Source: a virus
Lineage: Duplodnaviria; Heunggongvirae; Uroviricota; Caudoviricetes
DNA length: 6,014 bases
IMG/VR virus record: IMGVR_UViG_2698536307_000001
Strand: one strand, 5' to 3'
Position numbers: made by a program. Shown in pieces: positions 1 to 3,000 of the stretch. Numbering within the stretch: the first letter of the stretch is position 1; each line of letters begins with the position of its first letter.

Positions 1-3000
1 GGAAAAAATAGCCTAAATAGGCTGATTCGATGTGTTTGCGGGAAAAAAATCGGCCCAGATCCGAGAAATTTTAATCAGCGAGTCAGCTTGGGAAGAAATG
101 ACCTGCTTATTCGCACCTTCCTTAGCAGTATTGGCCCATTTCACCAGGTCAAACGCCTGTCCATCCACACCATCGAGCACCGGAGTAACATTAATGCTGT
201 TACTGCCCTTAAATTTAAATGCAAGCGTATGCCAGTCATGGTCGAATGCGCCAAACGTGCCAAGTTCTTTTTGTTGATTAACTGTATGATGGTATGCAAC
301 ATTAATACTGGCTTTATCTGTCTGGACAAAGAAAGAACTCAGATGGCCTTCACCACCCTCACCCGGCCATTCCGCTATTCGCCAGTACAAACCAAAGGCA
401 TACTTGTTTCTGGTTGTCTCAAGATTGACGTTTTCGGGGATTTTAAACCGGACAGCAATTTCCCCGCCTTTTTCCAGTAAAAGTTTTGCCTTGTCTGCAG
501 CAATATCACAGTACATTGACCAGGATTTCGCGCTGTTATTTTTCTCAATTCGCAGAGCTTTATTGCCGCTGTCATCAACCAGTGTGCGCCTGCCATACAC
601 ACCGTCCCAGCCATAGGGTTTCAGCTGATTGTCTGTAGCTTTTTTGGCATCGTAAAAAATTACAGACTCTGAGGTGGTAACCGGTCTGTCTGGAACAACC
701 ACCCCGGCAGTACCATTAACAAACGCAGAAGACTTACCCGCGCAGCTCAGAATCGCAGTTGCCAGACGGTCGGAAATAATCCCACGGCGAGCCCATGAAC
801 TGAAATGGCTCGCCCTGTCCTGTGACGTCCAGGTGGCTGAGCTGTCACGCCATTTCGAACCGTAATAACCGATACCCGGAATGTCCGGGTCTTCTTCCGG
901 TTTGTTCGTCGGCACATTCACCCCGTTCTCATCGGTCATGAACGGTACGAAATGGATATTCTTTTCCGTTTTATTTTTATAGCTGCCGTACACCGTCTGG
1001 TACGTGGATTCGTTCTTCTGCTTCCAGAAATACGTCGTGTCCCCGCATATCCAGGGAACACCGCCAGCAGAGCCACCGACGCACTGGCCTGCCATATCCG
1101 CCAGGTCTGCACGGAATTTATCAACCAGCGCACCAAACTGTGCGGCATGATTTGCCGGCGTACCGCCAAAATCAAATTCCCCCTGCATCCACACCACGGC
1201 AAACAGCACATTTTTCGGGTTCTTCTCCAGTGCCGCTTTTGTTCGACCGATAAGGTCCTTATACAGCGGCTTGTCCACACCCCAGCGGGTTGAATTCTCC
1301 GAGGCGCCACTCGCGTCACTGTATGTGCCATCAGCTCCGGTGGTGAACGCTGAACCACCACGACAGCACGGAACCAGCAGAATGCCCGCATTCGCCGGTA
1401 TAAACGGCAGCAGTTTTTTGGCGATATGCAGCCCCTGCCCCACGGTTCCGTACTGCCCCTTTGACAGGTCCGCTTTCGGATGGTTAAGACGGCTCATGTC
1501 CTGCACATCATGCAGACAATGGTCCGCCGGAATGATGTCGTTATATTTGCATGCTGCACCGCCCGGTGTCACCGTACTGCGACGCGCTAACTGTTTAATA
1601 CGTGGATCAGGGCTGTCGAATGTATCCGGTAATGGCAGTCCCTCACCGTATGACATACCATTGGACTGACCAGCAAGCGCGATCACATAGTAATATTCTG
1701 GCGCAACAGAAGGCGCTGAGGTCGTCGGACGGTTGCCTGGCTCCTCTGGTGATGAGATGCTCCCCTCACTCACAACTGGCTGGATGAACTCCGCACCATA
1801 ACCAGCTGTCGAAATCAGCGCACTACCATAAGGCTGCCACCCTTCCTTCAGTTTTTGAGTTATTCGTTTCGCAAGGTCTGACGGCGACGCCGCCCTGACA
1901 ACATCATAGTGTTTAAATGCCATGAATCCTCCCGGCCGGGATAATATTGTGAGTAAAATAAGGAGCGGGCTGAAGTCCGGAAGTTACAGGACAATGGCAG
2001 AAGGGAGACTACAGCCCGCAATTCGAAAAAGGTCGCGCAGTTGCGCAGAGTGATTACTATGGGGTATTATTCGCCAGCTGAAATATTACTTCACGTTTCA
2101 TTGTTCATTCCTTGCCGCCCGCGTCTCCCAGCGCGGGTTTTTTTGTCCATAAGAAAGCCCCTCCGGAGAGGGGCTGGAGAGTGGCGCTATGTGCCATTGC
2201 ATGGTGCCGGGTGCCTCCCGGTGAGTTCAGCCCGGTGCCACTAAACCCGCGTCATTCTCGTTTTGATAATCAGAGATTATACCGTCACCAGTCGCCCCTC
2301 CGCTCAGGGGGATTCACCATGCAGTTTTTTCTAACAAATTCTCATCCGGGCAGACAACATTCAACTGACTTAATTGTGAGGTATGTAACATTCCCGTTGA
2401 ACGGATACAAAAAAAGCCAGCCACCAGGGGAGGCTGGCAAACTCGTAGAGCAAAATGCTGTTACGCAAACTTCGTTACAGGGTTATCCTGCAATACTTAA
2501 AATATACAATATTTAGAAAACTAATAGTGCCATATGAGATTTTTAAGATTTTGTTATTAATTGCGGTCGTACCTTCCTTTCTGTGTACTTTCCGTATAGC
2601 TCACAGGATTCTGGGTACAAAAAAACCCGCGCATCGGCGGGTTCGGCTGCGTGGCAATGTAACCACTCTTATCATGATATGCAGATTTTTACGATCGTAA
2701 ACTATTTTTTCGCTGATAAAATACAGAGCTTCTCCCTCCCGGCAATTCACGCTCAACATACCGATCCATCTCAAGCCTCACTCCCAGCATCATCAGCATG
2801 CCTTCAACAATCCCCTCCGCTTTGTGAAGGCGTTTACCTATACAGGTGTCAGAGCACCCATGTTTCCGTGCCAGCGCCATGAACGTCTCCCCCAACACGT
2901 AGTAATCAACCAGCAAGTCATGCAGATCGCGATTGTTCCGGTAAAGGCGGGCTATGCACCCGCATATCACCATCGCATCATCGTCACAGCACTGTGGACG

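Follow-up and report, generated by a model that had tools for sequence, protein, structure and literature searches.

Sialate O-acetylesterases of the NanS-p type occur in phages that carry Shiga toxin (Stx) genes. The protein also has described homes elsewhere: nanS-p occurs in non-Stx prophages and rises upon prophage induction (PMC10462455), and seven alleles from EDL933 and five from O104:H4 have been reported as active esterases that support growth on Neu5,9Ac2 (PMC8065619). The version in phage Φ24B (vb_24B_21, or gp84; of the 933W L0105 type) is abundant in virions and is processed after release, and hexamers of its DUF1737 domain, anchored by Tyr42, sit on the central hexons of the T=9 capsid (bioRxiv 10.64898/2026.04.10.717836). 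According to two papers that cite Franke 2020 (PMC10462455, PMC8065619), the C-terminal domain has been crystallised as a lectin-like jelly roll (PDB 6YP6) and is a proposed carbohydrate-binding module. Insertion sequences (ISs) within nanS-p also alter its C-terminal end in O157 Stx2a phages (CTR3 variants; PMC10462455). Here we analyse a virus record, IMGVR_UViG_2698536307_000001, whose 6,014 bp (the window) make up the entire draft contig CYBN01000127.1 (E. coli assembly GCA_001284465.1). A preliminary description had presented its 636-aa open reading frame (ORF) as a full-length NanS-p cargo gene directly following the antiterminator gene Q, and had set the lack of toxin genes against the gene order of Stx-converting phages (Q, tRNAs, stxAB, nanS-p, lysis genes); an esterase without stx is, however, common, with published carriage in non-Stx prophages (PMC10462455) and active alleles in EDL933 and O104:H4 (PMC8065619). 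NanS-p in stx-less prophages, the three-domain layout, the C-terminal fold and IS-modified C termini are all already published; the new fact here is a negative one: a strain-specific IS5-family lesion that mimics a full-length ORF. Comparison with intact alleles indicates that an IS5-family element inserted after codon 600 has replaced the last 36 residues, and that the gene is not intact.

The assignment of the ORF itself held up. Pfam profiles for DUF1737 (Table 1), SASA (residues 152-276, E value 2.2e-10) and DUF6645 (residues 483-594, 1.6e-28) all matched, the first two being the ones that the preliminary description had proposed as a check. Searches of the PDB with phmmer returned NanS (YjhS; 3PT5) for the esterase core (Table 1) and the 6YP6 chain named 'NanS-p' for residues 426-595 (E 9.4e-35). 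A homolog search with the ORF protein gave 1,579 hits, and NCBIfam gave no match for the esterase or for Q. The protein shares the GQSN, RGGSAF, MQGEFD and RxSH blocks with NanS, which, unlike the window protein, lacks both DUF1737 and the lectin-like C-terminal domain. Block I is GQSNG at residues 85-89, with Ser87 at nucleotides 1663-1665; block II is RGGSAF at 188-193, block III MQGEFD at 246-251, and the last block RASHFS at 370-375, with His373 at nucleotides 805-807. The corresponding blocks of NanS are given as GQSNA, RGGSAF, MQGEFD and R.SHFS (PMC10792757). Residues of the catalytic blocks are invariant among 22 homologs, except for Gly89 of block I, which is serine in many. The canonical SGNH block V, DxxH with its catalytic Asp, is replaced by RASH at 370-373, where NanS has RSSH. 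The absence of a Ser-His-Asp arrangement, which the preliminary description would have counted against the assignment, is the wrong test for the NanS family because the block V Asp is missing from NanS as well (PMC9487903, PMC10792757); the gap is the family norm and no evidence against activity. Taken together, these matches identify the ORF as a putative NanS-p-type sialate O-acetylesterase. An AlphaFold model of the intact homolog P0002, built from a 22-sequence alignment, had a mean predicted local distance difference test score (pLDDT) of 47.5 with a poorly modelled catalytic domain; given this poor overall quality, it was not used for active-site geometry.

The C-terminal end of the ORF is a different matter. 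Over residues 1-600 the protein does not differ from the O104:H4 C227-11 allele of E. coli (WP_000874468.1), which lies without an IS insertion in a stx-less prophage beside ynfF, and the identity ends inside codon 601. The first 121 nt of the window match, at 119 of 121 positions, the end of an annotated IS5-like element of the ISKpn26 family situated beside ruvC in the unrelated strain FJ_Ec_21. A 16-nt inverted repeat, GGAAGGTGCGAATAAG, occurs as its reverse complement at 106-121 and is followed at once by TTAG; IS5 favours YTAR targets. The intact O104:H4 junction reads ...GAGTCCA/TTAGCAGTATTG (GAGTCCA/TTAGCAG), and that of the window ...CGCACCTTCC/TTAGCAGTATTG. The inverted repeat terminates exactly where homology to all nanS-p alleles stops: E. 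coli matches to the window all begin at about 119-122, and no homolog spans more than 96% of the ORF protein. A query with window positions 1-260, which include the IS stretch, gave matches that include 2,815 plasmid places. The terminal inverted repeat, the YTAR target and the multicopy distribution are thus those of an IS5-family element, whose transposase gene and second end lie beyond the contig, which terminates inside the IS. The CTR3 insertions in O157 are of the IS3 family (IS1203/IS629) or ISEc8, whereas the window has an IS5-family element in another C-terminal variant and in a stx-less prophage.

What the insertion removed can be read from intact alleles, which end in NGLNRFVITDITGSAETYPVLIDTVEVKANKAGAAA. 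This tail, retained in O104:H4, contains a TDIT..TYPVLID motif that is near-invariant in 22 full-length homologs and persists between variants of the C-terminal domain with an identity of only about 37% elsewhere; in the P0002 model it forms strands 605-609 and 620-630 (block pLDDT 72-82). Residues 601-636 of the window protein are IS read-through, KEGANKQVISSQADSLIKISRIWADFFPANTSNQPI, and share 3 of 36 positions with the allele of strain AST198 in an ungapped comparison; the AST198 tail is identical to those of O104:H4, of the Stx1c phage and of Sd197. The jelly-roll domain is therefore present to residue 600 only. Recombination with another nanS-p allele was considered as the source of the divergent tail and rejected, because no homolog covers the tail and its DNA is the IS terminus. 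The first in-frame stop in the IS sets the length of the chimeric ORF at 636 aa, the length of intact alleles. This equality is a coincidence, and it accounts for the full-length reading in both the preliminary description and the database record: the exact chimera is deposited (CTU71145.1 / WP_314732261.1) under the ordinary name 'SASA family carbohydrate esterase'.

Two other explanations of the C terminus have to be set against the disrupted allele. The ORF could be an intact, full-length NanS-p esterase acting as a metabolic cargo (moron) gene, as its length, its RefSeq entry as an ordinary protein and the recovery of all three Pfam domains would suggest; yet the last 36 residues come from an IS terminus and displace the near-invariant motif, the DUF6645 and 6YP6 matches end short of them at residues 594 and 595, and the equal length reflects the chance position of a stop codon. 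We consider this reading very improbable indeed. The junction could instead be an assembly artefact at the contig end, with the real gene intact, given that 121 nt separate it from the end of a draft contig assembled from short reads and that contigs typically break at repeats. Against this, the break coincides exactly with the outermost base of an IS inverted repeat, next to a YTAR-type target; apart from the tetranucleotide, the IS has no sequence in common with the intact gene that could have misled an assembler. Moreover, the contig is recorded in 2 samples, and the UniRef100 entry named after the chimeric protein has four members. An artefact is thus highly unlikely, and an allele disrupted by an IS5-family element is the reading that we follow.

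The preliminary description had left the C-terminal region without a function assignable from sequence, but the region corresponds to DUF6645, the crystallised jelly roll of 6YP6. The structure prediction that it had suggested as a probe for a carbohydrate-binding fold did yield a β-sandwich: the P0002 model's C-terminal domain is usable (blocks with pLDDT 70-87), and Foldseek placed it closest to 6YP6 (template modelling (TM) score 0.79), followed by 3PT5 and 2W68 (TM 0.77) and then by Akkermansia sialidases and legume-type lectins. A domain-only model gave the same ranking minus 3PT5, which matches the esterase core; across both models the TM score to 6YP6 was 0.76-0.79. In both models the β-sandwich resembles that of 2W68, the lectin domain with which Vibrio cholerae sialidase binds sialic acid (target-normalised TM 0.68-0.77; root-mean-square deviation 3.5-4.5 Å over about 220 columns) at a sequence identity of only 11-12%, and this likeness of models is best described as a fold resemblance, not family membership. 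Pfam gave no sequence-profile match to any carbohydrate-binding family in the ORF protein, and any likeness to a CBM40-type sialic-acid-binding module is thus one of fold, through 2W68. Four aromatic residues have been proposed for sugar binding in the Φ24B-type domain, Y510, Y515, Y540 and F611. The first three correspond to Y508, Y513 and F532 in the window allele; F611 corresponds to position 601, where the intact allele has N and the window has the IS junction. The lectin-like jelly roll probably binds sialoglycans. Separately, G+C content steps within the ORF, from about 45% in the part encoding this domain to about 56% in the esterase core.

Phage Φ24B is among the closest systems for comparison. 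Its gp84 shares the three-domain layout and also lies after Q, in the equivalent place. The two proteins are 100% identical over residues 1-60, including Tyr42 within DUF1737 and, directly after that domain, Gly54 and the SISSP motif (55-59), and the esterase cores are 98.8% identical. The C-terminal domain, however, is a different sequence variant and is 37% identical; the mosaicism of nanS-p is at the level of domains. The label 'cargo' is questionable and probably too narrow, because the identical N-terminal domain of gp84 decorates the capsid (bioRxiv 10.64898/2026.04.10.717836). NanS-p thus probably decorates virions, whether in addition to a role as lysogen fitness factor or in place of it.

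At the DNA level, a close guide is O104:H4 C227-11. Its sequence around the gene aligns to about 87% of the window, with an identity of 99.5-99.6% in the aligned parts, and includes the same Q, spacer, STnc100 and nin genes. Its locus continues with DUF1378, DUF826, holin, lysozyme, Rz and a Φ24B-like structural module, whose major capsid protein and portal are 93.8% and 96.2% identical to those of Φ24B. The closest complete-genome match is AST198 (NZ_AP043606.1 1752420-1782316), a decayed prophage beside ynfF that keeps Q, nanS-p and lysis genes and has lost most structural genes, with many pseudogenes; at the same site O104:H4 has a complete Φ24B-like prophage. Holin, lysozyme and Rz follow nanS-p in AST198 as well, whereas the downstream side of the window is cut by the IS and the contig end.

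The esterase was said to follow Q directly. It is the first protein-coding gene after Q, and Q is the nearest same-strand gene upstream of the ORF, but the two are separated by a 765-bp spacer (1924-2688) with a promoter, terminators and STnc100. We mapped the Φ24B annotation of this spacer onto the window and compared it with a consensus scan for promoters and terminators; both agree (Table 1). The small RNA (sRNA) STnc100 is a known prophage sRNA, a relative of PasD that has been reported 75 nt downstream of stx2; its Rfam match spans the whole model, and the sRNA ends in a terminator-like hairpin at 2175-2156 found by the terminator scan. A candidate promoter 5' of STnc100 (TTACAT, 18-nt spacer, TTGAAT; about 2391-2362) was noted by eye only. 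Weak Rfam matches to Qrr (23 bits) and anti-hemB (20 bits) fall below the gathering threshold and were set aside as chance or terminator-hairpin matches. The plus strand, opposite nanS-p, has a promoter-like site at 1917-1945 and, at 2117-2138, a strong terminator-like hairpin with a T-run; an antisense RNA of about 190 nt could run from one to the other. Φ24B is annotated with small ORFs on the equivalent strand and region.

The spacer also defines where cargo is missing. That no toxin genes occur at the locus was borne out: there is no stx ORF in the window, and none between Q and the esterase, and ARAGORN found no tRNA genes in the window. In Φ24B, by contrast, tRNAs and stx2 separate Q from the gene. 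Alignments with three collinear phages break off just past the second terminator and resume into STnc100. At this slot a Stx1c prophage has 1487 bp with stx1c, Φ367 has 473 bp with three tRNAs and no stx, and Φ24B has its tRNAs and stx2, whereas the window has only 9-17 unrelated bases. In the Stx1c prophage both flanks of the 1487-bp stx1c block have their match in the spacer, from which the block itself is absent; the region is therefore not that of an stx-converting phage. Of 5,426 complete E. coli genomes, 90 have the same empty junction; among 50,697 phage records there was none. The prophage might descend from an Stx phage that lost stx by deletion, as opposed to a lineage that never carried it. 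In keeping with a loss, Stx1c phages are collinear on both sides (94-97% on the Q side, 79-89% on the esterase side) and differ by the 1487-bp stx1c block, and a preprint on the Pas sRNAs suggests that stx has been lost repeatedly from prophages in genomes. The junction, however, keeps no stx or tRNA remnant among its 9-17 nucleotides, and it recurs in the 90 genomes; Φ367-type phages hold tRNAs without stx in the slot, and therefore independent gains are equally possible. On balance we regard loss of stx as rather unlikely. The converse proposal, that the slot is a never-occupied site for stx1c, tRNAs or tRNAs plus stx2, taken together with the idea that the IS5-truncated allele is a natural lectin-domain knockout of a capsid-decorating esterase, is offered tentatively and is in our view doubtful.

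These elements suggest how the locus may work (Table 1). Transcription would start at PR', and Q would modify RNA polymerase at qut, allowing read-through of tR', of the second terminator and of STnc100 with its terminator, and then into nanS-p. In the protein, the N-terminal DUF1737 domain, which docks as hexamers on the central capsid hexons in Φ24B, may do the same in the present prophage. The SGNH/SASA esterase is predicted to take 9-O-acetyl groups off sialic acids through a dyad of Ser87 and His373 that, like that of NanS, has no Asp, and the C-terminal jelly roll would provide probable binding to sialoglycans. In this strain an IS5-family element entered TTAG within codon 601 and exchanged the last two β-strands of the jelly roll for 36 residues encoded by the IS. 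It left the capsid-binding and catalytic modules untouched; the lectin module is most likely destabilised or non-functional.

Taken together, the window very probably represents the nin/Q late-regulatory region and the first late gene of a lambdoid prophage, 933W/Φ24B-like (Sepvirinae-type), without a stx or tRNA cassette, with an esterase disrupted by an IS5-family element. The domain identities, the IS junction, the absence of stx and tRNAs and the collinearity with stx-bearing phages were observed. Several points weigh on the other side. A 6-kb window leaves the lysis and structural genes of the prophage in this strain outside view, and the second IS junction lies outside the contig, so that an IS-mediated deletion of everything downstream is possible. 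The active-site geometry derives solely from sequence alignment to 3PT5. Capsid decoration is known for Φ24B alone, from a preprint, and the linker ahead of the C-terminal domain is without the SSP motif proposed as the Φ24B cleavage site. Finally, AlphaFold set the IS-encoded tail of the chimeric C-terminal fragment in both native strand positions with moderate confidence. We rejected this model as folding evidence, because the columns of its alignment were supplied by intact homologs and swaps of this kind do not register with the method; the model speaks neither for nor against misfolding.

The remainder of the minus strand codes for a typical lambdoid nin region, as established by ORF calling and Pfam (Table 1). 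The mechanical ORF of Q reaches 3222, and the RefSeq gene is 435 nt (WP_001204886.1) in AST198 and O104:H4; the window coordinates of Q were derived from the collinear AST198 match. DNA identity to Φ24B in the Q region is about 96%. Further upstream, an Rfam match to sRNA-Xcc1 (5310-5399, minus strand; 67.5 bits against a gathering threshold of 53) occupies the gap between two antirepressor genes. A 290-bp direct repeat (4640-4929 and 5527-5816; about 96% identical) codes for the P22AR_C ends of these adjacent antirepressors. O104:H4 has a single antirepressor in place of the two in the window, which fits deletion or duplication by recombination between the 290-bp repeats.

Table 1. Features of the 6,014-bp window, in order of position
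Feature	Position	Strand	Basis and remarks
Terminal 121 nt of IS5-family (ISKpn26-like) element	1..121	+	Inverted repeat 106-121
Insertion target TTAG	122..125		Junction comparison with intact O104:H4 allele
Chimeric ORF, 636 aa	13..1923	minus	Codons 1-600 nanS-p; 601 spans junction; 602-636 and stop IS-encoded
Lectin-like jelly-roll remnant (DUF6645), residues ~418-600	124..672	minus	Pfam, 6YP6; final two β-strands gone
SASA/SGNH esterase core, residues 72-393	745..1710	minus	phmmer against PDB, 3PT5 NanS, E 3.4e-118
DUF1737 (PF08410), residues 3-53	1765..1917	minus	Pfam, 4.7e-18
Shine-Dalgarno GGAGG	1928..1932	minus	4 nt before ATG; read from sequence
STnc100 sRNA (RF02076)	2145..2350	minus	165.1 bits against gathering 47; model positions 1-206 of 206
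Unoccupied cargo slot	2393..2409		blastn breakpoints against three collinear phages, junction sequences
Second predicted intrinsic terminator past PR'	2421..2440	minus	Scan; Φ24B annotated terminator, 5471-5499 of Φ24B locus
Predicted tR'-like terminator	2623..2644	minus	Scan; Φ24B annotated terminator, 5680-5702 of Φ24B locus
Putative qut site	about 2653-2660	minus	Mapped from Φ24B annotation
Predicted late promoter PR'	2674..2701	minus	TTTACG, 16-nt spacer, TATCAT; scan and Φ24B pR'
Antiterminator Q	2689..3123	minus	PF06530 (Phage_antitermQ), 3.8e-50; 144 aa by RefSeq start
NinB, NinE, YbcO/DUF1364, RusA and NinH genes	nin region	minus	Pfam
BRO/P22AR_C antirepressor		minus	Pfam
ORF6N/P22AR_C antirepressor	truncated by contig end	minus	Pfam

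Beyond correct annotation, the importance of the finding is small. In typing and in counts of nanS-p copies, WP_314732261.1 is to be scored as a disrupted allele. The locus offers a clean empty-site comparison for the stx/tRNA cargo slot, and if the slot was indeed never occupied, it would pinpoint the site at which toxin cassettes are acquired and provide a conserved flank pair to search for the targeting mechanism. For the NanS-p family, the fitness 'cargo' label is to be read beside the recent evidence for virion decoration.

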